Part shown: piece after piece, positions 1 to 25,532 of the stretch
Layout of the letters: each line of letters starts with the position of its first letter
Position numbering within the stretch: the stretch's first letter is position 1
DNA from: Candidatus Nanopusillus sp.
GTDB taxonomy: Archaea > Nanobdellota > Nanobdellia > Nanobdellales > Nanobdellaceae
Reading direction: 5' to 3'
Assembly (NCBI GenBank): GCA_028275775.1
Contig: JAPWTZ010000007.1
Span: forward strand, 1-25,532
DNA: 25,532 nt
The notes under the pieces: model-generated
What the model was told of the DNA's origin: nothing
The model's database searches: none
The model's input: the letters and a program-made list of their open reading frames with translations, nothing else
Made by a program: the position numbers and the translations under genes

Positions 1-396
<396 letters not shown>

Positions 397-4002: not shown

Positions 4003-4347
4003 ATGAAGGGAATAATATTAAATTATAGGATGGGTAGGCATCATATATATCCAAATCAGGTAATAGTAAAATTTGAAAATATAAATGATAAATATGAGGC
4101 AAGTAAATATATTGGGAAGCATGTAATATGGGTAAGTCCTGGAAAGAAAATTTTTATTGGAAAAATTGTTGATATACATGGGAATAAAGGAAATTTAAGG
4201 GTTAGATTTAATAAAGGAATACCTGGACAAGCTTTGGGAGATATTGTTTTATTAATTGATAATATAGATAAAGTAAAAGAAATAAGAGAAAAAATAAAAA
4301 ATGCAAAAGATATAAATCAAATAAGGAGTATTTTAATTAATGCTTAA
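4003..4347 (+). CDS. rpl35ae: Ribosomal protein eL33 (L35Ae)
   Basis: MKGIILNYRMGRHHIYPNQVIVKF...ASKYIGKHVIWVSPGKKIFIGKIVDIHGNKGNLRVRFNKGIPGQALGD follows the L35Ae pattern (G-x-I-x-x-[FY]-R-x-G, GKxVxW, HGxxGxxRxxFxxGLPGxAxG). It has a ~25-aa C-terminal extension. Confidence 0.88.
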   Translation: MKGIILNYRMGRHHIYPNQVIVKFENINDKYEASKYIGKHVIWVSPGKKIFIGKIVDIHGNKGNLRVRFNKGIPGQALGDIVLLIDNIDKVKEIREKIKNAKDINQIRSILINA

Positions 4348-7035: not shown

Positions 7036-8166
7036 TTATATCTGAAAATTATGTAGAAGGCTCTCCATATCATTAAATATATTATCAATTTTTCTCTTAT
7101 TGTGCCATTTTAGTGCTAAATTTCTTATCTTGTATCTATTGCTACGTAAGGAGGTTTGATATTTTTGTGTATATTCATTATAGGCAGTAACTGCTCTATT
7201 TTTTATCTCGTTTTTCCCTTCTTTTTCTAAAATTTTTAGTAAATATGATCTTAAAGGCTCTTTGTAGAGTCTGTTTATCTTAGCTTCTAGCACATCAAGA
7301 TCTTTCATATAATTTTCATATTCATTAATAAAGTCTTTAATATTATCCCTAATTTTTCTTAATAAGTCTATGAGAGGGTCAATATTTCTGGGTGGCTGTT
7401 GTTGCCCTAAATAGTTACTTTGTAAAGTATTAACTAAATTGTCGAAATCATTTTTTAGTTTGGTAATATCCTGCTCAAACTGGTTAACTGTTTTTCTAAG
7501 ATTGTTTTGGAGATTTTTAACATCTTGGGGCGTATGTATATGATATATAAGTTTCTTTAGTTTCTTTATATCACTTGACTGTGAGAGTTTGTAACCATAA
7601 ATAAAAATAATAATAAAGAATATAAATAAAAGGATATAAAAAGCTGATGAAAATAAAAATCCTATAATGTTAGTACCATTGGTTAATAGAACATACAAAA
7701 TAAGAGCAGTAATAATAGTTCCCGTAATACCTCCTATTGTGCTTCCTGTAAGGGTGTGAAAGAGTTTATAAAACCCAAAAAATAATAAGACAATTGCTAA
7801 AATAATGGCAAATAAAATCAATATTGCATGAAAAAATATTGTGAGAAGAAGATCAATAATGAAATAAATTAGAAGTAAAGGCCTATTTATTTCTTTTTGA
7901 GTTATATATGTTATAAAGGCAAGTACTCCAAAAACAAATAGAAAAGGAATTGCAAAACCCAAAACAGATGATCCAAGAGTGGTGGTTAGATACTTTATTA
8001 TTGGAGTGTTTATAATAGAAGATAAATTAAAGAAAGGTGAAAGACCAGATGCTTCTTGTTGAGCTTGAGAAATAATTTGATTTAAATTTGATGCTTGAGC
8101 ATAAATATTTATACCTGGTAATAATATCAAAGAGAGTAAATATTTAATATAATTATTAATTTTCAT
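7036..8166 (-). CDS. Membrane protein: N-terminal signal-like segment, ~5-6 TM helices, ~170-aa C-terminal coiled-coil domain
   Basis: 376-aa ORF. The leader is MKINNYIKYLLSLILLPGINIYAQA. A hydrophobic core includes GFAIPFLFVFGVLAF, related to the motif of the 10839-12656 paralogs. The C-terminal half is charged and helical. Confidence 0.75.
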   Translation of the reverse strand: MKINNYIKYLLSLILLPGINIYAQASNLNQIISQAQQEASGLSPFFNLSSIINTPIIKYLTTTLGSSVLGFAIPFLFVFGVLAFITYITQKEINRPLLLIYFIIDLLLTIFFHAILILFAIILAIVLLFFGFYKLFHTLTGSTIGGITGTIITALILYVLLTNGTNIIGFLFSSAFYILLFIFFIIIFIYGYKLSQSSDIKKLKKLIYHIHTPQDVKNLQNNLRKTVNQFEQDITKLKNDFDNLVNTLQSNYLGQQQPPRNIDPLIDLLRKIRDNIKDFINEYENYMKDLDVLEAKINRLYKEPLRSYLLKILEKEGKNEIKNRAVTAYNEYTQKYQTSLRSNRYKIRNLALKWHNKRKIDNIFNDMESLLHNFQI

Positions 8167-8238
8167 TTTACGTTTATAGTATCTTGGAATTTATAAAAAT
8201 TGTTTCCTTCAGATAGTAAAATTCAAAATCAATTCTTA

Positions 8239-8264
8239 ATATTTAAACAAGATATTTAAACAAG
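8239..8264. repeat. Exact tandem duplication of a 13-mer (ATATTTAAACAAG x2)
   Basis: Read directly at 8239-8251 and 8252-8264. It lies 73-98 nt upstream of the minus-strand start at 8166. On that strand each copy contains TTTAAATAT, which is TATA-like. Confidence 0.85.
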
Positions 8265-8341
8265 GATAATAAAAATTGAAAAGTCACTTAAATTTCGAAA
8301 AAGTTTGTAAAATAAATATTTTATACTAAAAGGATAAATAA

Positions 8342-9091
8342 CTATAAATTGCTAACCTTATATTCATGTAAAATAGATTTTTTCATTAGATCTTTTATTT
8401 CTATAGCTTTTTCTAATGCTAAATTTAATGCATCATTTAATTCCTTACTTGAAATTTCTCCATCCAATTGTATTAAAGTAAATTTCTTCTCAGAAGGAAT
8501 TATTGCAACCGGTATATCTGTAGCTCTTCCTTCTCCATAATATTCTATATATTTAGATTTTTCAGGATCTTTCTTTAATTTTTCAGAATCATAATCTTCT
8601 TCTTCCTTATTTAAATCTGCAACAATTCTTTCTCCAATTTTTCCAACTGCTAAACCTACTACTAAATCTTTCATTGGAATACCTGCTAAGGATAATGCTA
8701 AAGATGCAGCATTTATACTTGCAGTCCTTGTTCCAGCATCTGCATTTAATATTTCAACATATACATCTATAATACTTCCAGGAATTTCTTCTAATAATAA
8801 TGCTGGTTCTAATGCTCTTTTAATTACTTCAGATAATTCAATTTCTCTTCTACTTGGTGTAGGCTTTTTCCTTTCAGGTGTAGAAAATGTTAACATATTG
8901 TATCTAACCCTTAAGAATGCTTTATCATAATCTAAAGACATTTTTGAAGGTTTTGGTCCATATACAGCAGCTAATGCAACAGTATCACCAAAAGAAAATA
9001 TTGCAGATCCTTTTGCATTATCTATTACATTTAACTTTATATTTATTTTCCTTAATTCATTATATTCTCTACCATCAAATCTTTTTACCAT
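8342..9091 (-). CDS. rrp41: Exosome complex exonuclease Rrp41 (RNase PH-like)
   Basis: RFDGREYNELRKINIKLNVIDNAKGSAIFSFGDTVALAAVYGP... and ...NADAGTRTASINAASLALSLAGIPMKDLV... are the RNase PH / Rrp41 signatures. Confidence 0.9.
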   Translation of the reverse strand: MVKRFDGREYNELRKINIKLNVIDNAKGSAIFSFGDTVALAAVYGPKPSKMSLDYDKAFLRVRYNMLTFSTPERKKPTPSRREIELSEVIKRALEPALLLEEIPGSIIDVYVEILNADAGTRTASINAASLALSLAGIPMKDLVVGLAVGKIGERIVADLNKEEEDYDSEKLKKDPEKSKYIEYYGEGRATDIPVAIIPSEKKFTLIQLDGEISSKELNDALNLALEKAIEIKDLMKKSILHEYKVSNL

Positions 9092-9093
9092 TT

Positions 9094-9693
9094 TTATTTA
9101 TTTTCCAAAATTTCTTTAACCTTTTCAGTTAACCCCCTTTTATAAGAATTATTTATAACAAATCTAATAATATCTACTGCCTTTAATATATCATTTACAT
9201 TACCATTTAAATATATTCTACCGTTCTTTCCAATTATTATATCAATTTTTAAATATTCTTTAATTAAATTTAACATTGAAGAATTCTTCCCAATTAATCT
9301 TGGAATTCTTGCAGGATCTACTTTTAATATTAATCCATCATTTAATTTTTCCTTTTTCTTAATTTCTAAATCTATTAATTTATTTTTTGTCATTCTTATA
9401 ATTTGACATAATATATAATCTCCATAAGTATATAAATCATTTGGATCTACTCCAGTATCTTTTAAAGATAATTTTCCTACATATGGAGAATTTATATCAA
9501 TTAGCCATCCATTTGATAATACATCAATTACTTTTCCAATTACAATATCATTTACTTCTGGCATGTAATATCCAAAAAGCCTTGTGGTTTTATCCTCATT
9601 TACTAATAATATATATTTTGAATAATAATTATTTTCCCTTTCATATGAATTAATATCTTTTTTCTTTAAGTTATCTCCAGGTATTAATATCAT
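9094..9693 (-). CDS. rrp4: Exosome RNA-binding subunit Rrp4 (S1 + KH)
   Basis: ILIPGD..., YMPEVNDIVIGKVIDVLSNGWLIDINSPYVGKL (S1), and ARIPRLIGKNSSMLNLIKE...IIIGKNGRIYL (KH, GxxG). It lies 2 nt upstream of rrp41, which is the canonical order. Confidence 0.88.
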   Translation of the reverse strand: MILIPGDNLKKKDINSYERENNYYSKYILLVNEDKTTRLFGYYMPEVNDIVIGKVIDVLSNGWLIDINSPYVGKLSLKDTGVDPNDLYTYGDYILCQIIRMTKNKLIDLEIKKKEKLNDGLILKVDPARIPRLIGKNSSMLNLIKEYLKIDIIIGKNGRIYLNGNVNDILKAVDIIRFVINNSYKRGLTEKVKEILENK

Positions 9694-9694
9694 C

Positions 9695-10801
9695 TTATAG
9701 ATAATATATTATATCATTTTTAAACATACTCTCAAGCATATACTTTTCTTCATTTTTATGTTTTATCTTTTCTGCCTCATTTTCTAATATTGAAAATATA
9801 TCCTTTATTGTTGAATATAGATCATATCCGTGATCATCAATTGAGAATTTACCATTATTATATATTAATTTTGCTCTAATTTGATAATATATTTTTCTAT
9901 TTTCTTTATCTTCATTTATCTTTTTAATATGTATTAATAATCTAATATTTTCCCCTAAAATATTTCTATATTTTTTATAAAATCTCTCATACATTTTCTT
10001 TATATAATTTATATCTATTTCATCTAAAGGTATTCCATGAACAATTAGATTATACTCTTTTTCCTTTTTATATTGTAAATAATTTATTAATATATCTTTA
10101 GCAGTTATTATACCAACCAAATTTCCATTATCTAATATTGGCAATGAAAATACTTTATTTTCTATCATTAAATTAATTATTTTCTCTATACTATCATCTT
10201 TATTTGCAAATATTAATTTATTACTCATTATTGATTTTATTTTTATATCAAAATCTTTTTCATTTGGAGTTCTTATATTATTACTATTATCAATTAACAT
10301 ATATTTTAGGATATCTGTTAATGAAATTATCCCAGATACTTTATTATTTTTATCTAATACTATTAATCTTGATATACCTTTATCTTTCATTATACCAATT
10401 GCTTTCTTAATATTTTCATCTTCATATATTGTATAAGCTTCATTTATTATTTCACTTAAGTTCATTTTTCCTAGAATATCTTTATCATTTAATATATCTT
10501 TTAATACATCATATATATTGACTATTTTTATTTGTCCATCTTCTCTTACAAAAGTTACTCTAGAATTAGAATTAATTAATTTTTCTACTATATCAATTAT
10601 ATTGTTTGTTTTTAATGGTTTTATTTTATTTACTATTTTTTCAATTTTCGTATCTGGTCTATATAAATATCTAATTGCTTTTGAATTCTCTAAAACTCCT
10701 ATAGGTTTTCCATTATTATCTGTTACAATTATATCTTCTCCCTTTTTTATATATTCTACAATATCTCCTATTTTTTTATCCTTAGATATGAATACTGCCA
10801 T
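9695..10801 (-). CDS. CBS-domain protein with a C-terminal HPF/RaiA (S30AE)-like domain
   Basis: Residues ~1-245 contain repeated CBS-type segments, e.g. GISRLIVLDKNNKVSGIISLTDILKY and VFSLPILDNGNLVGIITAKDILINYL. Residues ~250-350 read YNLIVHGIPLDEIDINYIKKMYERFYKKY...IRLLIHIKK...YYQIRAKLIYNNGKFSIDDHGYDLYSTIKDIFSILENEAEKIKHK. This follows the beta-alpha-beta-beta-beta-alpha pattern and the G-x-D-[ML]-Y-x-x-I-D...K-x-K-x-K signature of hibernation promoting factor. Confidence 0.8.
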   Translation of the reverse strand: MAVFISKDKKIGDIVEYIKKGEDIIVTDNNGKPIGVLENSKAIRYLYRPDTKIEKIVNKIKPLKTNNIIDIVEKLINSNSRVTFVREDGQIKIVNIYDVLKDILNDKDILGKMNLSEIINEAYTIYEDENIKKAIGIMKDKGISRLIVLDKNNKVSGIISLTDILKYMLIDNSNNIRTPNEKDFDIKIKSIMSNKLIFANKDDSIEKIINLMIENKVFSLPILDNGNLVGIITAKDILINYLQYKKEKEYNLIVHGIPLDEIDINYIKKMYERFYKKYRNILGENIRLLIHIKKINEDKENRKIYYQIRAKLIYNNGKFSIDDHGYDLYSTIKDIFSILENEAEKIKHKNEEKYMLESMFKNDIIYYL

Positions 10802-10838
10802 TAATCTATATAATAAAAAATTCTTAAATGATTATTTT

Positions 10839-11477
10839 CTATCTTCTTGTACGTTCTGGTAATTCATATAGTGCTTCTGCAGGTGCTAGAATAAGGTACT
10901 TTCTGCGTCTTCTTCTTGGATATTTTTCTTTATGTACTGCCCAATATATAGCTGCAGCTATAATTCCTATTAATATAATCAATGGGAGTAAACCAGTAGA
11001 TATTAATACAAATAGTATTTCTAATATTATATTTTGAGCAGTTGCTCCAAATCCACTAAAATCTACTGAAGATGCGTACAGAAATGCAAATAGAACTGTA
11101 AGGGTTATAAATCCAACAATAACATTATGAGAATATTGTTTATATCTTTCAAATTCTTCATCCCCTCTATAAGGTTCTGATATGCTTGCCATCATTGCAA
11201 TTATCATTAAAATAAAAAATATAACAAGTACTTCAAAGAAGAAGAATGATATGAAATTTGATGTAAATATAACATCAGATATGCTATATAAATAATAAAA
11301 TGCTATTACTATAGAAATTATTGCATATAATTTTTCTGCATTAGGATTGTTTCTTCCAAATAAACCAATTTTTCTAAGGGATCCATATAACAATGAAAAT
11401 ACTAATAAAAATGGTGCTACAATTGTAAATATACCATATTCTGAAAATAAAGCATAAATAAATGATGCATAATCCAT
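10839..11477 (-). CDS. Membrane protein, paralog 3 of a tandem family (GxFxxVxPFLLVF N-terminal motif)
   Basis: 212 aa with an N-terminus of FIYALFSEYGIFTIVAPFLLVFSLLYGSLRKIGLFG. It has 4-5 hydrophobic helices and a basic tail (RRRRRK). Its start lies 1 nt after the upstream stop. Confidence 0.8.
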   Translation of the reverse strand: MDYASFIYALFSEYGIFTIVAPFLLVFSLLYGSLRKIGLFGRNNPNAEKLYAIISIVIAFYYLYSISDVIFTSNFISFFFFEVLVIFFILMIIAMMASISEPYRGDEEFERYKQYSHNVIVGFITLTVLFAFLYASSVDFSGFGATAQNIILEILFVLISTGLLPLIILIGIIAAAIYWAVHKEKYPRRRRRKYLILAPAEALYELPERTRR

Positions 11478-11478
11478 T

Positions 11479-12084
11479 TTATCTAGATCTTAATATTATT
11501 GGGCCTCTAATTCTTTCTTCTTCTTCTTCCTTCTTCTCCCCGCCAACCACCAATGCTACTACTAAAAATATAAATGCAAATATAATTAACAATTGTAATG
11601 TGCCAGATTGAATAAGGTTATTAAGTGTATATGACAATAAACCTACGAATGGCGATGAAGAAGGTCCTGCTATGCTTAAAGAATTTACTGCTAGCCATAA
11701 TATTATTCCTACAACAATGAATGCAAAGAATGCTCTTAACCATGAAGGTATCTTTTTATTTGTAAGTGCTAATACAATAACTATTAAAGCAAATGCAATT
11801 ATAGCTAAGCCAGCCCTAGGAATAAATAATAATAACCATCTTATTAAATTTTGATTATATATTGATAAAAGAGCAAATGCAAGAGAAAATAATGCGCTTA
11901 ATTTTCTACCTACATCATCATCAGGACTTGTTTTTAATAAATTAGATAATTCTAGTAACATAAATGTTAAAGAAAATATTAATAAAAATGGTAAAACAAA
12001 ATCTAAAAATCCATATTGTGATAATAATTGATTAAAATTCACTGGATTAAAATTTATTTGTGGTATTTGACTTGTGGTTATCAT
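11479..12084 (-). CDS. Membrane protein, paralog 2 of the tandem family
   Basis: Motif FNQLLSQYGFLDFVLPFLLIFSL, with an acidic tail (KKEEEEE). I prefer the start at M18 of the track ORF. That ATG (12084-12082) forms an ATGA overlap with the upstream TGA (12083-12081). The alternative start at 12135 would overlap the upstream gene by 55 nt. Confidence 0.75.
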   Translation of the reverse strand: MITTSQIPQINFNPVNFNQLLSQYGFLDFVLPFLLIFSLTFMLLELSNLLKTSPDDDVGRKLSALFSLAFALLSIYNQNLIRWLLLFIPRAGLAIIAFALIVIVLALTNKKIPSWLRAFFAFIVVGIILWLAVNSLSIAGPSSSPFVGLLSYTLNNLIQSGTLQLLIIFAFIFLVVALVVGGEKKEEEEERIRGPIILRSR

Positions 12085-12656
12085 TTTGATTGTGAAGGTC
12101 CCGATCCTTGGCCTTTTGAAGGTTTTATAGCCCAATATGCTATTCCAAACATTATTGCTAGAATTATTATTGTTTCTATAAATGGTTGTAATGAAGAAAG
12201 TACTGGAGATGTTACTGCTGAAGCAACATAATTATATAAGCCAAGTATAAATATTACCATTAATGTAAAGATAATTATTGCAGCTGTTAATAATATTATT
12301 CTTGCTCTATTACCAAGTTGTATTTCTCCGCTCTTTTCTTCTCTCTGTAAAAATGGAGAAATTGCTAATATGAGGAAAAATACTGTTAATAAAAATAAAA
12401 CTATATATGGAATTAATGTTCTTAATGATAATACAACATTTGCAGATCCAACTATAAAAAATCCAGTAGCTGCAGATACAATTGATACTAAACTCCTTGT
12501 AACCTTTCCTTTATCTCCTTCAGCAAAAGGATCCCCCAAAATTTTATACTTACTTAATATACCATACATCACAGCATAAACTAATAGAAATGGTAATATA
12601 ACATTAAAGAATCCAAGGTTATTCAATAATGTTATAAGTATATCATAAAATGCCAT
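12081..12656 (-). CDS. Membrane protein, paralog 1 of the tandem family
   Basis: 191 aa with N-terminus MAFYDILITLLNNLGFFNVILPFLLVYAVMYGILSKYKILG. It has 4-5 hydrophobic helices and a Gly/Ser/Lys tail. Confidence 0.8.
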   Translation of the reverse strand: MAFYDILITLLNNLGFFNVILPFLLVYAVMYGILSKYKILGDPFAEGDKGKVTRSLVSIVSAATGFFIVGSANVVLSLRTLIPYIVLFLLTVFFLILAISPFLQREEKSGEIQLGNRARIILLTAAIIIFTLMVIFILGLYNYVASAVTSPVLSSLQPFIETIIILAIMFGIAYWAIKPSKGQGSGPSQSK

Positions 12657-12682: not shown

Positions 12683-12895
12683 TTAATCTTTATCTAATAT
12701 TTCTTGATAATATATAGCATTTGTAGGGCATGCCTTTGCGGCAATTTTTATATCTTCTATATCTTCTTCAGAAGAAATTATATTATTTTTTATTACTATT
12801 CTATTATTTTCAATTGAAAAAATATTTTTATTTATCAAATAGCATGCCAAACAATTTATACATTTACTATAATCAATATCTACTATATATTTCAT
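12683..12895 (-). CDS. Small single-cluster [4Fe-4S]-type ferredoxin (paralog B)
   Basis: 70 aa with C-I-N-C-L-A-C (CxxCxxC) plus a distal A-C-P-T-N-A-I. That gives four Cys ligands for one cluster. Confidence 0.8.
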   Translation of the reverse strand: MKYIVDIDYSKCINCLACYLINKNIFSIENNRIVIKNNIISSEEDIEDIKIAAKACPTNAIYYQEILDKD

Positions 12896-12898
12896 TCA

Positions 12899-13108
12899 TT
12901 AATCTTTTATTTCTTCTACCTTAATTGAATGTGTTGGGCATGCAACTTCAGCATCTCTAGCTTTTTGTATTAAATTTGGATCTTCTATAATTTCAATTTT
13001 AGCTTTTGCTTTTCCATCAGAATCAAATTCATATATTTCTGGTGCAATTGCAATGCATGTTCCACAACCAATGCAGGTGTTTTTATCAACCCATGTTTTT
13101 ATTTTCAT
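12899..13108 (-). CDS. Small single-cluster [4Fe-4S]-type ferredoxin (paralog A)
   Basis: 69 aa with C-I-G-C-G-T-C-IAIAPE...FD.DGKA and a distal VACPTHSI. This matches the Thermotoga/Pyrococcus-type mono-cluster ferredoxin pattern. Confidence 0.85.
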   Translation of the reverse strand: MKIKTWVDKNTCIGCGTCIAIAPEIYEFDSDGKAKAKIEIIEDPNLIQKARDAEVACPTHSIKVEEIKD

Positions 13109-13159: not shown

Positions 13160-13987
13160 GTGGAATTAAATGATATTTTTGTTAGAGTAACAGATATAAC
13201 AGATTATATTTTTTGTCCTAGAAAAGTTTATTTGAAAAGGGTTTTGGGATATTCTGAAGAAGATAATGAGCAAAAATTATTTGGATCTATTGTTCATTCT
13301 TTATTTGATAAGATAAATGAAAAAGAAAAGGAAATAATATTTAATATAAAAGAGTTTGTTGAATATGAAAAAATATTAAATTTATATAATAGTTTTTTAA
13401 TAAAATTATTAGAAGAATCTATAAAAGAATTTGAAGAACAAATAAAAAATTTAAATTTAGATAAAAATGATATAAAAATAAAGGCATATAGTTATGTAAT
13501 AAAAGATATAGAAGATAGGGCAAAAAATGTATTTAATTTTATGAAAGATAAAGATTTATATGGGATAGAATTATGGGAATTCTTAGAACCAAAAATAAAG
13601 ACAGAACTTGATGTTACATCTTTAAAATATAATATAGTTGGAAGGGTTGATAGAGTAGAAATATATAAAAAATATATAATACCATATGAAATAAAATCAG
13701 GATTTTTTAGGAGAGAACATATTACGCAACTATATTCATATTATTTATTATTGAAGGATGAATTTCCAAATTATGATATAAGAAAAGGTATATTATTATA
13801 TGCAAAGGATAATCATAAAATAGAAATAGAGTTTAGAAATAATAATGAAATAAAGAAAATACTTGATATAAAAGATAAAATAATTGATATGATTGATAAA
13901 AAAGAAGATCCTGGAAAGAAATTTTCAGAAAAATGCAAAAAATGCGCATTTTATAATATTTGTTGGAAAAATGGAAATAAAAATTGA
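13160..13987 (+). CDS. Cas4-like / RecB-family PD-(D/E)xK nuclease with a four-Cys Fe-S cluster; stand-alone, with no cas genes or array in the window
   Basis: N-terminal ITDYIFCPRKVYL (Cys 1). Nuclease motifs are GRVDRVE and PYEIKSG (D...ExK) plus QLYSYYLLL (QxxxY). The C-terminal CKKCAFYNIC supplies Cys 2-4. The apparent start codon is GTG, and no in-frame ATG lies upstream. Confidence 0.82.
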   Translation: MELNDIFVRVTDITDYIFCPRKVYLKRVLGYSEEDNEQKLFGSIVHSLFDKINEKEKEIIFNIKEFVEYEKILNLYNSFLIKLLEESIKEFEEQIKNLNLDKNDIKIKAYSYVIKDIEDRAKNVFNFMKDKDLYGIELWEFLEPKIKTELDVTSLKYNIVGRVDRVEIYKKYIIPYEIKSGFFRREHITQLYSYYLLLKDEFPNYDIRKGILLYAKDNHKIEIEFRNNNEIKKILDIKDKIIDMIDKKEDPGKKFSEKCKKCAFYNICWKNGNKN

Positions 13988-14735
13988 TACTAGAAAAAGT
14001 ATATATGAAAATATAAATGAAATATATGAAAAAATAAAAGAATTAAAAAATAAAAAACAAAAAATAGAAAAATTGATAAAGGAATTGGAAGAAAAGTTAA
14101 ATAATATTGAGGAAAAAATAATTATTGAAAAAAAGAAGGAAGAAATTAAAAGAAATAAAAAATGGTATGAGAAATTTAGATGGATGTTTACAACAAATAA
14201 TTTTCTATTAATTGCTGGAAAAGATTCTATTACAAATGAAATTATTATAAATAAATATTTAGAAAAAAATGATTTGGTATTTCATGCAGATATTATAGGA
14301 TCTCCTTTTGGTATATTAAAAAATGGAAGGAATGCAAGTGAAATAGATATATATGAAGCTGCAAAATTTGTTGGATCATATTCTAGAGCATGGAAAAATA
14401 AATTATCTTCTATAGATGTATATTATGTATATCCAGAACAAGTATCAAAAAAGGCACCTTCTGGAATGTATTTAAAAAAAGGGTCATTTATGATATATGG
14501 AGAAAAGAATTATATAAAAGTGAATTTAGAAATTGCATTGGCGTTTGAAGATTATAATATTATTCCAGGTGTACCTGAAAGTATAAAGGATAAATATAAA
14601 AGATATGTTATATTAATTCCTGGAAATAAAAAGCCAATTGATATTGCAAAACAATTAGAAAATATTTTTAAGGTTGATTATAATATCATATTAGGATATC
14701 TTCCTGGTGATAGTGATATACTATCTATCAAGTAA
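13971..14735 (+). CDS. NFACT-family protein, C-terminal half only (coiled coil + NFACT-R/DUF814 + C-terminal region); Rqc2/FbpA homolog fragment
   Basis: KKWYEKFRWMFTTNNFLLIAGKDSITNEIIINKYLEKNDLVFHADIIGSPFGILKNG...EAAKFVGSYSRAWK...DVYYVYPEQVSKKAPSGMYLKKGSFMIYGEKNY is the DUF814/NFACT-R signature. I chose the start at M27 of the track ORF (ATG 13971), which overlaps the Cas4-like gene by 17 nt. There is no NFACT-N or HhH region. Confidence 0.82.
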   Translation: MEIKIDTRKSIYENINEIYEKIKELKNKKQKIEKLIKELEEKLNNIEEKIIIEKKKEEIKRNKKWYEKFRWMFTTNNFLLIAGKDSITNEIIINKYLEKNDLVFHADIIGSPFGILKNGRNASEIDIYEAAKFVGSYSRAWKNKLSSIDVYYVYPEQVSKKAPSGMYLKKGSFMIYGEKNYIKVNLEIALAFEDYNIIPGVPESIKDKYKRYVILIPGNKKPIDIAKQLENIFKVDYNIILGYLPGDSDILSIK

Positions 14736-16807: not shown

Positions 16808-17335
16808 CTATATATATCTTAGAAAATTAATTATTATATCTTTATTTAAAACTTCTGGATGGAACAATGAAAAATATATATTTTTATATTTATATAATAC
16901 AGGAATATTTTCTACTTTTCCAATTATATAGAATTTTTCATCAATCTTTGGAATTTTTGTTATTAAAAAATATGCTTCAAAATCTTTATTAATTATTTTA
17001 TCTTTATTTATTACTTTTACATAATATTTTCCAATCAATTCTTTATCTTCAAAATCATAATTTAATAATTTTATTAATATTTGGCTTCCAGAACATATTG
17101 CGAGAGTTTTTATATTGTTTTTAATTATAAATTCAAAATTCTTTATATAGTTTAAATAATCAAAATCCATTATTGCAGTACCTGTTATTATTATTTTTTC
17201 AAAATATTCATTTATTTTATCTTTATATGAAAAAACTTTATAATTAATGTTTAATTCTTTTAAAATATTTATTATTGGATATAAAAATTCATATTTTGAT
17301 AATTCTTCTTTATTTGTATGAATTATTCCAATCAT
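16808..17335 (-). CDS. Class I glutamine amidotransferase, stand-alone small subunit (GuaA-subunit-A-like)
   Basis: 175 aa with nucleophile elbow LAICSGSQIL (G-x-C-x-G-x-Q type) and C-terminal LFHPEV (His-x-Glu of the triad). The start forms an ATGA overlap with the upstream gene (17332-17335). Confidence 0.75.
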   Translation of the reverse strand: MIGIIHTNKEELSKYEFLYPIINILKELNINYKVFSYKDKINEYFEKIIITGTAIMDFDYLNYIKNFEFIIKNNIKTLAICSGSQILIKLLNYDFEDKELIGKYYVKVINKDKIINKDFEAYFLITKIPKIDEKFYIIGKVENIPVLYKYKNIYFSLFHPEVLNKDIIINFLRYI

Positions 17336-17997
17336 TCTAAATAAGCATCCTTTATAATATATTCTGCGTAATTTTTTTCTATCTTTATTTCATAATCTTT
17401 TATTATTATTCTTTTATTAAATAATGGTTGATATAAAACAAATGTTTCATATTCTCCTCCTTCTCCCGCAATATTTATTTTATATTTTTCTTTATATTCA
17501 ATTAATTTTTTTATTATATTTTCATCAACAACTTTTCCTAAAATATTTGTATCTAAAGGATATGTATACCATCCAACAATTATAAATTGAAAATTATTTT
17601 TCAATAATTCATATAAATATTCTTTTTCATCTTTTAACCATAATGGATTGAAACACCATAGATTTAATCTTTTACATATTCTTTGAAATCTTGATCCTTG
17701 ATATGTAGATCTAATTGCTCCAGTAACAATTCCATCAATGTTATATTTTTCTTTTAAATATTTTAATGCTTCAAATAATGTTTCTTCTTCATTATTATTT
17801 ATATAAAATCTTTCTATAGGTATATTTAATGCTTTTGATTGTAATTCAGTTAAATTATTATTAATATAATGATATAAATAACTTTCATTATTTTTTGGGA
17901 TTATATTTAATAGTACAGATATTTCATGATATTTTGATGCAATATATAATGAATAATTTGAATCTTTTCCTCCAGAATATAATACTGCAAGTTTCAT
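17332..17997 (-). CDS. dph6: Diphthine-ammonia ligase (Dph6 / MJ0570-DUF71 family N-type ATP pyrophosphatase)
   Basis: MKLAVLYSGGKDSNYSLY (PP-loop SGGxDS), ...ESYLYH..., DGIVTGAIRSTYQ, and the family-specific IAGEGGEYETFVL motif. Confidence 0.85.
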   Translation of the reverse strand: MKLAVLYSGGKDSNYSLYIASKYHEISVLLNIIPKNNESYLYHYINNNLTELQSKALNIPIERFYINNNEEETLFEALKYLKEKYNIDGIVTGAIRSTYQGSRFQRICKRLNLWCFNPLWLKDEKEYLYELLKNNFQFIIVGWYTYPLDTNILGKVVDENIIKKLIEYKEKYKINIAGEGGEYETFVLYQPLFNKRIIIKDYEIKIEKNYAEYIIKDAYLE

Positions 17998-18903: not shown

Positions 18904-21108
18904 ATGGCTACTCTAACTGAAAGAATATTGCAAGTTATGAATAATCCGAATAATATAAGAAACATAGGTATAATTGCGCATATACATCATGGAAAGACAA
19001 CATTAACAGATTCTTTATTGGCAGGTGCAGGAATGTTGGCAGAAGAACTTGCAGGTGAGGCAATGTTTACATGGTGGCATGAAACTGAAAGAGAAAGGGA
19101 AATAACAGTATATGGGGCTGCAGTTTCAATGGTTCATAATTATGAAAATCAAGATTATTTAATAAATTTAATAGATACTCCAGGACATGTAGAATTTTCA
19201 GGACAGGTTACTAGAGCTGCTAGGGCAATTGATGGTGCAGTTGTTGTAGTAGATTTTGTTGATGGAATAATGCCTCAAACAGAAACTGTGTTAAGGACTG
19301 CATTAAAAGAATATGTAAAACCAGTATTATTTATAAATAAAACTGATAGAGCAATTACAGAATTAAAATTATCTCCACAACAAATTATGGAAAGGATTGG
19401 AAAAATAGTTATTGAAATAAATAGATTAATTGATAAATATTCTCCTCCAGAATTTAAGGGAAAATGGAATGTAAATGTAAATGATGGATCTGTTGCATTT
19501 GGATCTGCAAAATTTCATTGGGCATTATCAGTACCTTTTATGAAAAAATATAATGTTTCATTTAAAGATATAATTGAAATATATAATCAATTTTCAGAAG
19601 ATAAAGAAAAATTAAAGGAAGAAATGAGAAAAAGGGCACCAGTTGCAAAAGTTGTATTAGATATGGTTATAAGGCATTTACCCTCCCCAGTTGAGGCTCA
19701 AAAATATAGAATCCCCCATATATGGAAGGGAGATATAAATTCAGATGTTGGAAAAGCAATGTTGAATTTAGATTCAAATGGACCAATAGTAATAAATGTA
19801 ACAAATGTAATAATTGATAAGGTATCAAAACAAGAAATTGCAACTGCAAGAATATTTTCAGGTACATTATCAAAAGGAGATGATGTATATTTAATCCAGG
19901 CTGGAAGACAAATAAAAATACAACAGGTTGCTGTATGGAAAGGAATACAAAGAATAAATGTAGATTCTGTAAAGGCTGGTAATATAATTGCTTTAGTTGG
20001 GATAAGAGGATTATATCCTGGGGAAACAATTGTTGGAAAAGTTCAGGATCCAAAAAGTGTTGAAACATTTGAAGAAATGAAACATTGGTTAGATCCTGTA
20101 GTTACAAAATCATTTGAACCTAAGAATCCAAATGATTTACCAAAATTAATTGAAACATTAGATCTATTAACAAGAGAAGATCCAACAATAAAAGTTGAAC
20201 AAAACAAGGATACTGGAGAAATTTTGGTATCTGGTTTGGGAGATTTACATTTGCAAATAATAGAATATAGAGTACAAAATGATTTTGGAATACCTGTAAA
20301 GGTTGGGAATCCAATAGTAATTTATAGAGAATCTGTTAATGGAATTACACAAGTATATGAAGGAAAATCTCCAAACAAACATAATAAAATATATATACAA
20401 ATTGAACCTTTACCATATGAAATATATGAAAAAATGAGGGAATATATTAGGGAAGGAAAATTACCTGAGGGAAGGATTAAAAAAGAAGATGTATGGAAAG
20501 TATTTAATGAAATTGGATTTGATAAAGAAGAGGCAAGGAGGATTATAATGGTACATAATGGAAATGTATTGATTGATATGACAAGGGGTATTGTTCATTT
20601 ACCAGAAGTAATAGAATATATTGTAGAAGGATTTAAGGAAGTAATGAATCAGGGTCCATTAGCATGGGAACCTGGTATAATGATGAAAGTAAAATTAATT
20701 GATGCAGTATTACATGAAGATGCAATTCATAGAGGTCCTGCTCAAATAATTCCTGCAACAAAAGATGCAATTAAGAGTGCAATTCTTGAGCAACCAACAT
20801 TATATGAACCATTACAAGTTATAAGGATCGATACCCCTCCAGAAACTGTTGGAGATGTAACATCAATATTACAATCAAGAAGGGGACAAATATTAGAAAT
20901 GAATATTGAAGAAGAAAGAGCAACAATTAAAGCAAAAGTACCTGTAGCAAATATGTTTGGATTTACAGATGAATTAAGATCTGCAACATCTGGAAGGGGT
21001 GTTTGGTTCTTAGAAGATCAGGTATATGAAAAAGTTCCAAAGGATTTACAACAACAAATAATAGATTCTATTAGAAAAAGAAAGGGAATACCTGAGGGAG
21101 TTCACTAA
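18904..21108 (+). CDS. fusA: Translation elongation factor 2 (aEF-2)
   Basis: G-domain motifs AHIHHGKTTL, DTPGH and NKTD. Conserved domain IV holds the diphthamide loop LHEDAIHRGPAQIIP. 734 aa is the usual aEF-2 length. Confidence 0.95.
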   Translation: MATLTERILQVMNNPNNIRNIGIIAHIHHGKTTLTDSLLAGAGMLAEELAGEAMFTWWHETEREREITVYGAAVSMVHNYENQDYLINLIDTPGHVEFSGQVTRAARAIDGAVVVVDFVDGIMPQTETVLRTALKEYVKPVLFINKTDRAITELKLSPQQIMERIGKIVIEINRLIDKYSPPEFKGKWNVNVNDGSVAFGSAKFHWALSVPFMKKYNVSFKDIIEIYNQFSEDKEKLKEEMRKRAPVAKVVLDMVIRHLPSPVEAQKYRIPHIWKGDINSDVGKAMLNLDSNGPIVINVTNVIIDKVSKQEIATARIFSGTLSKGDDVYLIQAGRQIKIQQVAVWKGIQRINVDSVKAGNIIALVGIRGLYPGETIVGKVQDPKSVETFEEMKHWLDPVVTKSFEPKNPNDLPKLIETLDLLTREDPTIKVEQNKDTGEILVSGLGDLHLQIIEYRVQNDFGIPVKVGNPIVIYRESVNGITQVYEGKSPNKHNKIYIQIEPLPYEIYEKMREYIREGKLPEGRIKKEDVWKVFNEIGFDKEEARRIIMVHNGNVLIDMTRGIVHLPEVIEYIVEGFKEVMNQGPLAWEPGIMMKVKLIDAVLHEDAIHRGPAQIIPATKDAIKSAILEQPTLYEPLQVIRIDTPPETVGDVTSILQSRRGQILEMNIEEERATIKAKVPVANMFGFTDELRSATSGRGVWFLEDQVYEKVPKDLQQQIIDSIRKRKGIPEGVH

Positions 21109-23698: not shown

Positions 23699-23938
23699 TT
23701 ATGAATTTTTAATTATTATAGTACCAACTGAATAGTAATAACCTTGATAATAAAATAAATTTGATTGATTATTTAATTTTGCATCTTCCAATGTTAAATT
23801 ATATATTTGATTTTTTATTAATGAATTTCTATAATTTAAATTATTTAGATAATTATAATAGAATATTAGAGAACCTGATATAAATAATAAAACTAAAAAA
23901 ATAAATAATACTTGCTCTAATAATAATTGTGTTTTCAT
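23699..23938 (-). CDS. Small pilin-like protein (79 aa) with a short charged N-terminus + hydrophobic helix
   Basis: MKT-QLLLEQVLFIFLVLLFISGSLIFYY would place Glu at +5 if cleaved after MKT. It lies directly upstream of the ATPase gene. The cleavage-site residue (T) is non-canonical. Confidence 0.55.
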   Translation of the reverse strand: MKTQLLLEQVLFIFLVLLFISGSLIFYYNYLNNLNYRNSLIKNQIYNLTLEDAKLNNQSNLFYYQGYYYSVGTIIIKNS

Positions 23939-24453
23939 TGTATTATTGAATAAATTAATGTTTGATTTTTAACTATATTTAAATTGCAATTTCCATAACA
24001 TAATCCTGTACAATTATTTGTCAATATTATTAATGATAAATAATTCTCAAAACATCCATACAATGTAATATTATTATTATTTTCCAATAAATAATATCCA
24101 TTCATCTTTGGATCATATACATAATAATTTCCATATGAATATATTAATTCTCCCTGATATGTTATATTATTTAATGTTGTTATACAAAAATTATTTGATT
24201 TAATTAATGTTAAATTATTTAAACAATATATATCATATCCATTTAAATTAAAATTTATATTAAAATACAAATCATCTTCTAAATTATTTAATACATTTTC
24301 TATATATTTTGAATCATATTGAAATTTATTTTGATTATTAAAATTTATTGCATATATTTTATTACTATTCCACCATGTAAAAACAAAATAAAATGTAAAT
24401 ACGGATAATAGAATTATTAGAATATATTCAATATAAATATGTATCGATTTCAT
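23935..24453 (-). CDS. Pilin-like secreted protein (172 aa), Cys- and sequon-rich
   Basis: MKS-IHIYIEYILIILLSVFTFYFVF N-terminus. The body is Asn/Tyr-rich with about 7 Cys (NNCTGLCYGNCNLN) and several N-x-S/T sequons. Its stop forms an ATGA overlap with the next gene. Confidence 0.6.
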   Translation of the reverse strand: MKSIHIYIEYILIILLSVFTFYFVFTWWNSNKIYAINFNNQNKFQYDSKYIENVLNNLEDDLYFNINFNLNGYDIYCLNNLTLIKSNNFCITTLNNITYQGELIYSYGNYYVYDPKMNGYYLLENNNNITLYGCFENYLSLIILTNNCTGLCYGNCNLNIVKNQTLIYSIIQ

Positions 24454-24468
24454 AAAAATATATTAACT

Positions 24469-25532
24469 TTATATATTAAATGTTTTTCTCTGATAATCTT
24501 CTAAGAAAAATATATCTTCTCCCAATGTATATCCATAATCTGATATAATATTATAATATGATGCCTTTTTATTTATATCTCCATGATTTGGTATTATATA
24601 TTCAGGATTTAACATTTTTAATAACATTATATGATCTTGACTTTTTGCATGACCAGATACATGTATATCCTTTATTATTTCTGCTTTTCTTCTCTTTAAT
24701 CTTTCTTCCAATATTTTTCTATTTGCTTCATTTATTGGATGCGGAATTACATTATTTGCAAATATTACTGTTGTATTACTTAGATCAAAATTATATTCTC
24801 CCCTTGCCAATCTATCTAAAACAGAACCAGGTTCTCCTTGATGTCCAGTAACAATTAATAAATATTCTTCCTTATTTTTTTCTATCCTTTCCAAAACCTT
24901 TTTATAATCTCTTGGATCAAAATATACTTCTGCCTCTTTAGAAAAATTATATAAATCAATATTTTCTGCAGCACTAATATATTTTCCCAAACTTCTTCCA
25001 ATAAATATTGGTTTTCTATTTATTTCTTTAGATAATTCAATTATTGATTTTAATCTTGCAATATGGGATGAAAATGTTGTTATAATTATCCCCTTTGTAT
25101 CTATTGAATTTAATACATCATATAACATATATTTTTCAATAATTTCTGATTGAGATTTTGAATTTTCATCTGCTCTCGTTGTTTCAGAAATTAATAATAA
25201 AACACCTTCTTTTCCAATTTTCTTTAATTTTTCTTTATCAGGTTTTTTACCAATAATTGGAAAATTATCAAATTTAAAATCACCCGAAAATATTATATGA
25301 CCTTTATTTGTCTGAATATCAATCATTAATGATTGTGGGATTGAATGAGTAATATTAATAAAATTAATTGAAATATCTTCTGAAATTTTAATTGAGGAAT
25401 TTGGTGATATTTTCTTTAAATCATTTGGTAAAACAATTCCATATTCTTTTTCTTGTTGTTTTATTAATTCAATTGTATATGGAGATGCATAAATTGGAAC
25501 ATTATATTTTGGTGCAATAAAATTTACTGCTC
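24469..25532 (-). CDS. rnj: RNase J (beta-CASP metallo-beta-lactamase ribonuclease), partial; the N-terminus lies beyond the right window edge
   Basis: ITHSIPQSLMIDIQTNKGHIIFSGDFKFD, ...LLISETTRAD..., VTGHQGEP, and HVSGHAKSQDHIMLLKMLNPEYIIPNHGD. The track ORF starts at an internal Met (25326). My hand translation shows the frame stays open for all 68 upstream codons to the edge: AVNFIAPKYNVPIYASPYTIELIKQQ... Confidence 0.88.
   Translation of the reverse strand, partial: AVNFIAPKYNVPIYASPYTIELIKQQEKEYGIVLPNDLKKISPNSSIKISEDISINFINITHSIPQSLMIDIQTNKGHIIFSGDFKFDNFPIIGKKPDKEKLKKIGKEGVLLLISETTRADENSKSQSEIIEKYMLYDVLNSIDTKGIIITTFSSHIARLKSIIELSKEINRKPIFIGRSLGKYISAAENIDLYNFSKEAEVYFDPRDYKKVLERIEKNKEEYLLIVTGHQGEPGSVLDRLARGEYNFDLSNTTVIFANNVIPHPINEANRKILEERLKRRKAEIIKDIHVSGHAKSQDHIMLLKMLNPEYIIPNHGDINKKASYYNIISDYGYTLGEDIFFLEDYQRKTFNI

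Follow-up and report, generated by a model that had tools for sequence, protein, structure and literature searches.

Does an archaeal gene whose product joins CBS repeats to a domain resembling the bacterial ribosome hibernation factors HPF (hibernation promoting factor) and RaiA encode a hibernation factor itself? The gene lies at positions 9695 to 10801, minus strand, of a 25,532-nt stretch of Candidatus Nanopusillus sp. (assembly GCA_028275775.1, contig JAPWTZ010000007.1), which in its full length is called the window here. The fusion had been proposed in a first-pass annotation made from the DNA letters alone. Our analysis established the open reading frame (ORF), its domain architecture, fold and taxon, the homology to HibA and HPF, and the synteny. 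The gene very probably encodes the nanoarchaeal orthologue of HibA/Hib/AHA, a working hibernation factor of the HibA type. Both the CBS-HPF fusion and what it does have been published before, and the finding is in this sense known. The gene and its parts are as follows.

9695..10801, minus strand: hibA/AHA-type gene for a fusion of a CBS tetrad with an HPF/RaiA-like domain, 368 aa; intact ORF with ATG start and TAA stop (9695-9697)
9698..10063, minus strand: HPF/RaiA-like domain, residues 247-368 (profile matches, AlphaFold2 (AF2) fold, Foldseek)
10064..10801, minus strand: CBS tetrad, residues 1-246 (Pfam CBS, E = 1.5e-30, three stretches detected; AF2 model); approximate unit limits are residues 1-50 (CBS1), 55-110 (CBS2), 115-169 (CBS3) and 188-246 (CBS4)
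10313..10333, minus strand: ribose-binding-type motif of CBS3, G157-I-I-S-L-T-D163 (family consensus GIxxxxD)
10094..10114, minus strand: ribose-binding-type motif of CBS4, G230-I-I-T-A-K-D236 (family consensus GIxTxxDxL)
10241..10294, minus strand: equivalent of loop 3, or 'PTC loop' (PTC, peptidyl transferase centre), residues ~170-187, IDNSNNIRTPNEKDFDIK; shorter and divergent

[quoted passage not shown]

When the C-terminal 122-128 residues were searched alone, Ribosomal_S30AE (PF02482) was the top Pfam match (E = 0.017-0.018, 16.2-16.3 bits versus a cut-off of 23.7). The top NCBIfam matches were TIGR00741 yfiA (E = 0.0025, 18.2 bits versus 40.9) and RaiA NF007654 (E = 0.026, 15 bits versus 158). 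These single-sequence scores are suggestive and by themselves no proof. A phmmer search of the PDB with the C-terminal 128 aa as single sequence returned no HPF match; the only related chain, 9sr9_H (E = 0.68), stood amid chance matches. A family profile was therefore needed. Homologue searches gave 23 relatives, and two alignments were used, one of 15 full-length proteins (A1) and one of 14 C-terminal domains (A2).

Against the PDB sequences, the A2 profile matched Pyrococcus abyssi HibA (PaHibA; 9sr9_H, labelled 'Dehydrogenase') with E = 1.9e-12 and Escherichia coli HPF with E = 3.9e-6 (6h4n_x; also 4v8h_AX and 2rql). As many as 27 chains of HibA/HPF/RaiA/PSRP1 type outranked the first unrelated chain (E = 0.71), and the types matched were HPF, RaiA, YfiA, protein Y, long-HPF and PSRP1. 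In a Pfam scan of each member, 12 of the 14 matched PF02482 at E<=1, the best with 1.2e-10. The S30AE assignment of the first-pass annotation thus fell below threshold with the lone sequence, but was significant with the family profile. Its motif-by-motif comparison with E. coli HPF held up as well, all three blocks being reproduced by the alignment to the family-profile hidden Markov model (6h4n_x/4v8h_AX, E about 4e-6). Block 1 pairs LIVHGIPLDEID.. with LNITGNNVEITEAL.., block 2 pairs IRLLIHIKK with VYVVLKVEK, and in block 3 NNGKFSIDDHGYDLYSTIKD.. of the window protein is aligned to a segment of E. coli HPF. The conversion of residues 250-350 to nt 9752-10054 was arithmetically correct.

The full-length AF2 model, built on A1, had a predicted local distance difference test score (pLDDT) of 88 and a predicted template modelling score (pTM) of 0.84. 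Its C-terminal secondary structure, assigned by DSSP, is β1 251-255, α1 264-282, β2 287-298, β3 303-314, β4 317-325 and α2 328-367. Fold searches with the full model were dominated by CBS-tetrad proteins and silent on the C-terminal domain, which was therefore folded and searched separately. The domain-only model (pLDDT 86.7) had the same β-α-β-β-β-α topology. Its top 36 Foldseek matches in the PDB were all HPF, RaiA/YfiA, PSRP1, MPY or RafH, with target-normalised template modelling (TM) scores up to 0.80 and root-mean-square deviations of 2.5-3.1 Å. Examples are 8uu7_w (E = 4.3e-5, TM 0.77) and E. coli HPF (6h4n_x; E = 2.2e-4, TM 0.76). The Foldseek library (cut-off April 2026) was one without the 9SR9 series. 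Profile matches and a predicted β-α-β-β-β-α fold were thus both found, as the first-pass annotation had expected, and neither a missing profile hit nor a different fold speaks against its proposal.

Compared with E. coli HPF, the β2-β3 hairpin is ~9 residues longer, and PaHibA aligns to it nearly gap-free in the A2 profile alignment. We located one clear insertion relative to bacterial HPF in the C-terminal domain; two are described for PaHibA in the published work. The terminal helix is long in the AF2 model (residues 328-367, ~40 residues). After the HPF-like core only this helix remains, and the whole domain stands behind the CBS tetrad in the 368-aa protein.

Relation to HibA, AHA and other hibernation factors

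Searched in its full length against the PDB, the protein matched PaHibA best (9sr9_H; phmmer E = 5e-19), with residues 19-342 aligned to 32-367, collinear and across both modules. By BLASTP, the two proteins share 23% identity over 324 aa (E = 6e-20). PDB 9SR9 is the cryo-electron microscopy (cryo-EM) entry of P. abyssi HibA on the 70S ribosome.

HibA was described by Madru et al. (Nat Commun 2026, PMC13324472) from P. abyssi (Q9UYR4, 9SR9 series) and Thermococcus barophilus (F0LKU5); Hib is the name in the bioRxiv precursor of that work (10.1101/2025.10.11.676729). AHA, short for 'AMPK-gamma-HPF from Archaea', was described from Haloferax volcanii by Souza et al. (bioRxiv 2026, PMC12934967). 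The functional data on the family, comprising cryo-EM, in vitro inhibition, isothermal titration calorimetry (ITC) and knockouts, come from these two studies (PMC13324472, PMC12934967). On the P. abyssi 70S ribosome, HibA's C-terminal domain occupies the 30S mRNA/tRNA channel, like bacterial HPF (PMC13324472). The CBS disc of the characterised homologues sits on the 50S subunit at PTC, uL5 or L1-stalk positions, and a CBS3 loop enters the PTC (PMC13324472, PMC12934967). HibA inhibits translation in vitro, for which its C-terminal domain is required; in deletion mutants, 70S ribosomes are lost during stationary phase, and recovery is slow (PMC13324472).

With HibA, the window protein shares four CBS units, a C-terminal β-α-β-β-β-α domain of HPF/RaiA type (368 versus 392 aa in total), a β2-β3 hairpin extended relative to bacterial HPF, and conserved nucleotide-site motifs in CBS3 and CBS4. 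It differs by the low identity (23%), by a loop 3 that is 4 aa shorter and lacks Y195 and the GE..GEK motif, by changes at several contact residues, and by the embedding of its gene in an rrp4-rrp41 operon, of which we found no mention in the HibA paper. The comparison with AHA was made by published description, not by sequence: a CBS tetrad, an HPF domain and a long terminal helix (328-367 in the window protein) are common to both. In AHA, the tetrad contacts the A/P sites of the 50S subunit and places loop 3 in the PTC, the HPF domain lies in the 30S mRNA channel, and the terminal helix is longer than in E. coli HPF (PMC12934967).

The bacterial and plastid factors (HPF, RaiA, YfiA, PSRP1) have a homologous fold and topology, and E. 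coli HPF is matched by the profile (E = 3.9e-6); by analogy with HibA and AHA, the binding site is presumed to be alike. The window protein differs from the matched HPF/RaiA chains by its CBS tetrad, from long HPF by the lack of a C-terminal dimerisation domain, and from bacterial HPF in general by the longer hairpin and last helix. Stand-alone HPF has roughly 95-115 aa, whereas the domain studied here occupies residues 247-368 of a longer protein. The archaeal factors SriA-D/ARC-A/P of Methanosarcina (PMC13004131, 10.64898/2026.01.19.700304) have a structurally similar CBS-tetrad module and no HPF domain, in contrast to the one tetrad plus HPF-like domain of the window protein. Dri of Thermoproteota (PDB 9E6Q/9E7F) has a similar tetrad fold, but consists of two CBS tetrads without an HPF domain. 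Published phylogenies place the CBS module of HibA/AHA beside SriA/CM-5, and published surveys found the distributions of Sri/ARC/Dri and HibA/AHA to be largely mutually exclusive. The four-CBS disc and the canonical ribose-binding motifs in CBS3 and CBS4 are also shared with the AMPK gamma, MJ1225 and SSO3205 sensors; unlike these, the window protein has no kinase partner subunits, and its tetrad is fused to a predicted ribosome-binding domain.

A search of 1.84 billion representative proteins with the A2 profile gave 285 proteins at E<=1e-3. Among the 148 new matches listed, 73 carried the domain at the C-terminal end of a protein 330-410 aa long, and 59 were stand-alone proteins of <150 aa, including a bona fide HPF (P0055; A2 profile E = 9.1e-8, PF02482 66.5 bits). 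CBS domains were present in all 73 long matches listed and in the window protein, and 34 of these 74 matched PF02482 at E<=0.01. Repeating the search with an alignment of the 74 returned mostly known nanoarchaeal proteins and generic CBS proteins, along with one extra non-nanoarchaeal HibA. Judged by these sequences, the CBS-HPF fusion is widespread. The first-pass annotation took S30AE-type factors for bacterial or plastid proteins, an outdated view: 47% of archaeal genomes are reported to contain HibA (PMC13324472), and AHA is reported from 2,723 species in 17 phyla (PMC12934967). Ca. Nanopusillus acidilobi was among the genomes surveyed for HibA (PMC13324472). A literature search on ribosome hibernation in Nanoarchaeota found no papers.

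The CBS tetrad and its nucleotide motifs

The N-terminal ~245 residues had been read as CBS repeats, in agreement with the Pfam match, and form a four-CBS tetrad in the AF2 model, with four β-α-β-β-α units in residues 1-246. In the Foldseek search with the full-length model, 257-293 columns were aligned with four-CBS proteins (E = 1e-15 to 1e-11, target TM ~0.55-0.66). These were MJ1225 (1e-15), the SriA/B complex chain 9znf_4 (3.3e-15), the Dri chain 9e6q_3 (3e-14) and 9zni_6 (5.1e-13), and further SSO3205 and AMPK-gamma. Regulators of the HhpR/PrdR/CbpB kind were also considered and rejected, as their matches were confined to the CBS regions and far under the cut-offs.

The G-h-h-[ST]-x-x-D nucleotide motifs are intact in CBS3 and CBS4. 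G157 and D163 of CBS3 are invariant in the 15-sequence full-length alignment, and G230 of CBS4 is nearly invariant in the family alignments. PaHibA binds AMP with a Kd of 12 µM, with an order of affinity of AMP > ADP > ATP, as measured by ITC (PMC13324472), and AHA has two AMP molecules bound at CBS3/CBS4 (PMC12934967). From the conserved motifs, and by analogy with homologues that bind AMP or ATP at the CBS3/CBS4 junction, we infer that this junction probably binds adenine nucleotides in the window protein too.

The hibA-rrp4-rrp41 operon and its conservation

The first-pass annotation had placed the gene 1 nt upstream of rrp4 in an RNA-metabolism operon, and the sequence bears this out: the TAA of hibA is separated by 1 nt from the ATG of rrp4, and the rrp4 stop by 2 nt from the ATG of rrp41. 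Both exosome genes were matched by Pfam and NCBIfam. T-rich tracts follow 3' of rrp41. The local features are the following.

9094..9693, minus strand: rrp4, exosome cap subunit, 199 aa (Pfam KH_6 and RRP4_S1; NF003181, E = 5.6e-45)
8342..9091, minus strand: rrp41, RNase PH catalytic subunit of the exosome, 249 aa (Pfam RNase_PH, E = 1.8e-35; TIGR02065, E = 2.1e-77)
10802..10838, minus strand: A+T-rich spacer of 37 nt 5' of hibA, with a TTTAAG element ~27 nt ahead of the ATG, spotted by eye
12081-12656, 11479-12135 and 10839-11477, minus strand: three paralogous genes for predicted multi-pass membrane proteins of 191, 218 and 212 aa, directly 5' of hibA

In the nanoarchaeal lineage, hibA appears to be co-transcribed with rrp4 and rrp41. 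The TTTAAG element is a possible archaeal TATA box of a leaderless transcript, which is weak evidence because the spacer region is A+T-rich. Pfam and NCBIfam scans of the membrane-protein trio gave no family; cross-hits among the three indicate that they are paralogous. On the other side, 3' of rrp41, lies a gene for a 376-aa membrane/coiled-coil-like protein and not rrp42 (7036-8341, minus strand; also in loci L001, L003 and L005). This protein is poorly conserved, with homologues in only two relatives (35-41% identity). The rrp42 product is the usual partner of Rrp41 in the archaeal exosome ring.

The identity of the window HibA to its relatives is 96% for Ca. Nanobsidianus stetteri, 92% for Ca. 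Nanopusillus acidilobi, 64% for strain YN1, 55% for Nanobdella aerobiophila and 39% for Ca. Nanoclepta minutus. Relatives of these types are obligate ectosymbionts with genomes of roughly 0.6-0.8 Mb; the first-pass idea of a host-dependent archaeon agrees with this general knowledge of the closest relatives. In these symbiont genomes hibA is kept down to 36% identity, and the ORF is intact, with ~366-382 aa, in all 15+ lineages examined. Across 13 nanoarchaeal sequences, 34 residues are invariant.

Related loci were searched with this 13-sequence alignment, from which the two most distant of the 15 sequences had been dropped. In the recovered Nanoarchaeales genomes, the order of the membrane trio, hibA, rrp4 and rrp41 is collinear wherever the sequence covers it (the trio among L001-L020); the short contigs L004 and L021 cover only hibA-rrp4. 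Three deeper lineages (L006/L020, L027 and L029; HibA 34-36% identical) have a gene of ~140-150 aa between hibA and rrp4, which in two of the three copies has a weak or faint helix-turn-helix match (HTH_40) and in the L027 copy no Pfam match. Five more distant HibA homologues lie away from exosome genes: beside SRP54, near uL4, beside UbiD/DUF2070, with uS19 and RpoL, and with malate synthase. The hibA-rrp4-rrp41 arrangement is conserved across Nanoarchaeales and was not found in the HibA and AHA papers, whose main texts have no mention of an operon, Rrp4 or synteny, nor of a 'neighbor' in the sense of gene neighbourhood.

One of the distant homologues, on a metagenome contig (L028, P0027; 31% identity), stands immediately 5' of the genes for uS19 and RNA polymerase subunit L. 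The uS19 C-terminal tail contacts HibA's C-terminal domain in the P. abyssi structure; the adjacency may be coincidental.

Public names of the orthologues vary. A 92%-identical protein is labelled 'CBS domain-containing protein/ribosome-associated translation inhibitor RaiA' by JGI. NCBI and UniRef list the orthologue of the cultured Nanobdella aerobiophila (P0009; L001/L018, AP019769) as 'homoserine O-acetyltransferase', and another relative goes by 'predicted transcriptional regulator'; both names are likely annotation errors.

Divergent features of the nanoarchaeal protein

From the Asp of CBS3 to the start of CBS4, the window protein has 26 aa, compared with a mode of 30 in the family (range 25-40, 74 sequences). 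In the alignment, this loop 3 has neither the P..R...GE..GEK consensus nor an equivalent of PaHibA Y195, a residue that stacks on a PTC adenine (PMC13324472). We did not find such a shorter, divergent PTC loop described in the HibA or AHA papers. It may change which ribosome-bound states occur. It is no argument against function, because loop deletions in PaHibA left in vitro inhibition unchanged (PMC13324472).

The 45 positions at which the C-terminal domain of PaHibA contacts the ribosome (PTC state, Supplementary Data 1 of PMC13324472) were mapped onto the window protein. Identical residues were found at 4 of the 45 contact positions and at 17 of 62 non-contact positions, and similar ones at 14/45 and 30/62, respectively, a comparison that does not discriminate. 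By manual count, the family-typical residue class was matched at ~7 of the 14 strongly conserved contact positions. Family-typical contact residues are retained at R273, H291, E297, K311, G317, K333, K345 and K349, and lost at the equivalents of PaHibA R290, R326, A346 and R366.

Proposed function and alternative explanations

Homologues from P. abyssi, T. barophilus and H. volcanii have been shown to bind ribosomes and to inhibit translation (PMC13324472, PMC12934967), and by homology we infer both for the window protein. Its C-terminal domain would bind within the small subunit's mRNA/tRNA channel, at the decoding centre, where it would block mRNA and A/P-site tRNA, and its four-CBS disc would reach the large subunit at the tRNA sites. 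Because the HPF-like domain would hold the small subunit and the CBS disc the large one, a single polypeptide could clamp the idle 70S ribosome, silence it and shield it from nucleases until growth resumes. Adenylates bound at CBS3/CBS4, with AMP preferred in the homologues, could couple occupancy to the energy state.

This last step corresponds to the idea in the first-pass annotation of an energy-charge sensor wired to a ribosome-silencing domain. The sensing half agrees with the homologues' tighter binding of AMP compared with ADP and ATP, but the switching half does not have the same backing, since saturating AMP or ATP caused no substantial change in the conformations of HibA on the ribosome (PMC13324472). 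An energy switch is plausible; it is unproven even in the model homologues, because their ribosome-bound states were left substantially unchanged by either nucleotide, and this is one of several points that weigh against a HibA-type function. The functional data on the family come from non-nanoarchaeal members. As a lone sequence, the domain stays under the curated cut-offs of PF02482 (16.2 versus 23.7) and TIGR00741 (18.2 versus 40.9). Loop 3 is 4 residues under the family mode and has no counterpart of the aromatic residue with which P. abyssi HibA stacks on the PTC adenine. The equivalents of the basic residues R290, R326 and R366 of PaHibA are non-basic. Two further points belong on this side: conservation at the PaHibA contact positions is no higher than elsewhere in the domain, to which we give no weight either way, and the HPF-like domain is weakly basic (net +1), charge being uninformative as a proxy for rRNA binding.

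The operon raises a different explanation, in which the HibA architecture was repurposed in Nanoarchaeales as an exosome-associated factor. In that case, the HPF-like domain would have RNA or the Rrp4 cap as its partner, while decay or tailing of RNA would be tuned to adenylate levels by the CBS units. Such a role would explain the tight and conserved operon, with its spacers of 1-2 nt and a hibA-rrp4-rrp41 order that stays collinear in all the Nanoarchaeales genomes recovered, even where HibA identity is as low as 36-39%, and it would fit the loss of several family-typical contact residues and the shortened loop 3. A precedent is aSBDS of P. abyssi, a ribosome-associated protein that shares its operon with three exosome subunits and modulates the activity of the exosome in vitro (PMC2890523). 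Translation and RNA-processing neighbours are, however, typical of the archaeal exosome superoperon and need not mean that the proteins interact. The protein retains the HPF fold and many contact residues of the family consensus, and HibA homologues outside the Nanoarchaeales clade lie away from exosome genes. We know of no evidence that an HPF-type domain binds the exosome, and we consider this explanation improbable. In other archaea, aSBDS is normally encoded immediately upstream of rrp4 (e.g. AF0491-AF0494), the place taken by hibA in Nanoarchaeales. On idle P. abyssi ribosomes, aSBDS accompanies or substitutes for HibA.

Even less probable is a generic CBS regulator, such as a transcription factor resembling HhpR or a sensor resembling AMPK-gamma, with a convergent or coincidental likeness to HPF. 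The single-sequence S30AE/yfiA scores under the curated cut-offs would allow it, and it matches public names such as 'CBS domain-containing protein', 'predicted transcriptional regulator' and 'homoserine O-acetyltransferase' and a weak NCBIfam match to HhpR (E = 9.2e-9, 34.9 bits versus a cut-off of 520). Yet the profile matches to HPF/RaiA and PaHibA fall specifically on the C-terminal domain, the first 36 fold matches of which are all hibernation factors, and the full-length alignment to PaHibA spans both modules. By these profile matches and the fold search of the predicted model, the generic regulator is largely refuted. A decaying, non-functional remnant in a reduced symbiont genome is just as hard to credit. 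Nanoarchaeal proteins evolve fast, with 39% identity for HibA of Nanoclepta compared with 74% for Rrp41, and some consensus contact residues have been lost; against this stand the intact ORF in 15+ lineages, the conserved synteny, the 34 residues invariant across 13 sequences and the confident AF2 model. The retention of hibA in genomes of roughly 0.6 Mb argues for selection. A HibA-type hibernation factor thus remains our reading of the gene.

Given such a factor, the operon allows a speculation that we consider rather unlikely: capture of hibA into the exosome operon, maintained while HibA diverged to 36% identity, could tie ribosome protection and 3'-5' RNA decay together in fixed proportion, and the shortened PTC loop might favour binding modes that are not inserted into the PTC. 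If true, the ribosomes of obligate symbionts would be shielded whenever the exosome is made. Neither exosome-coupled production nor altered binding modes were found in the HibA or AHA papers. The hibA-rrp4-rrp41 linkage offers a testable tie between ribosome protection and RNA decay.

In a wider sense, the fusion that the first-pass annotation re-derived from raw sequence is one that three groups described in 2025-2026 as the most widespread ribosome hibernation factor of archaea, and no new kind of system. The match with an independently published fusion validates the sequence-only approach. What is added at the level of the lineage is the linkage to the exosome operon, the short loop 3 and a full-length HibA in minimal symbiont genomes. 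Its retention in obligate ectosymbionts with genomes of roughly 0.6 Mb suggests that ribosome preservation is important to host-dependent cells. The locus also exposes annotation errors among HibA orthologues.

Other features of the window

Across most of the window, the G+C content is 20-27%. It rises to 41.6% in the 5' part of an archaeal 16S rRNA gene (372 model positions; 1-396, minus strand), which runs off the window start, and is ~31% in the aEF2 gene (18904-21108, plus strand), near which a diphthamide synthase gene is found (17332-17997). The gene for ribosomal protein L35Ae (4003-4347, plus strand) shares 8 nt with the start of a metallophosphoesterase gene, and its product also matched the RimM N-terminal domain (E = 9e-9).

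An RNase J/CPSF-like nuclease is represented in a 285-aa ORF (24469-25326, minus strand) by its beta-CASP and RMMBL parts only. The gene may be split, or the neighbouring ORF (23935-24453) may hold the N-terminal metallo-beta-lactamase part.

The plus strand has at 13160-14735 a gene for a 275-aa nuclease of the Cas4/PD-(D/E)XK type and, after it, one for a stand-alone NFACT-R protein, whose domain is related to the RNA-binding module of Rqc2/NEMF, a factor in ribosome quality control. With the TTG listed as its start, the NFACT-R ORF would overlap the nuclease ORF by 95 nt; this start probably lies too far upstream. Two tandem genes for ferredoxin-like proteins of ~70 aa each lie at 12683-13108 (minus strand); relatives have two or three of them, annotated Fer4_13/Fer4_15, and the pair of nuclease and NFACT-R genes is conserved beside them.

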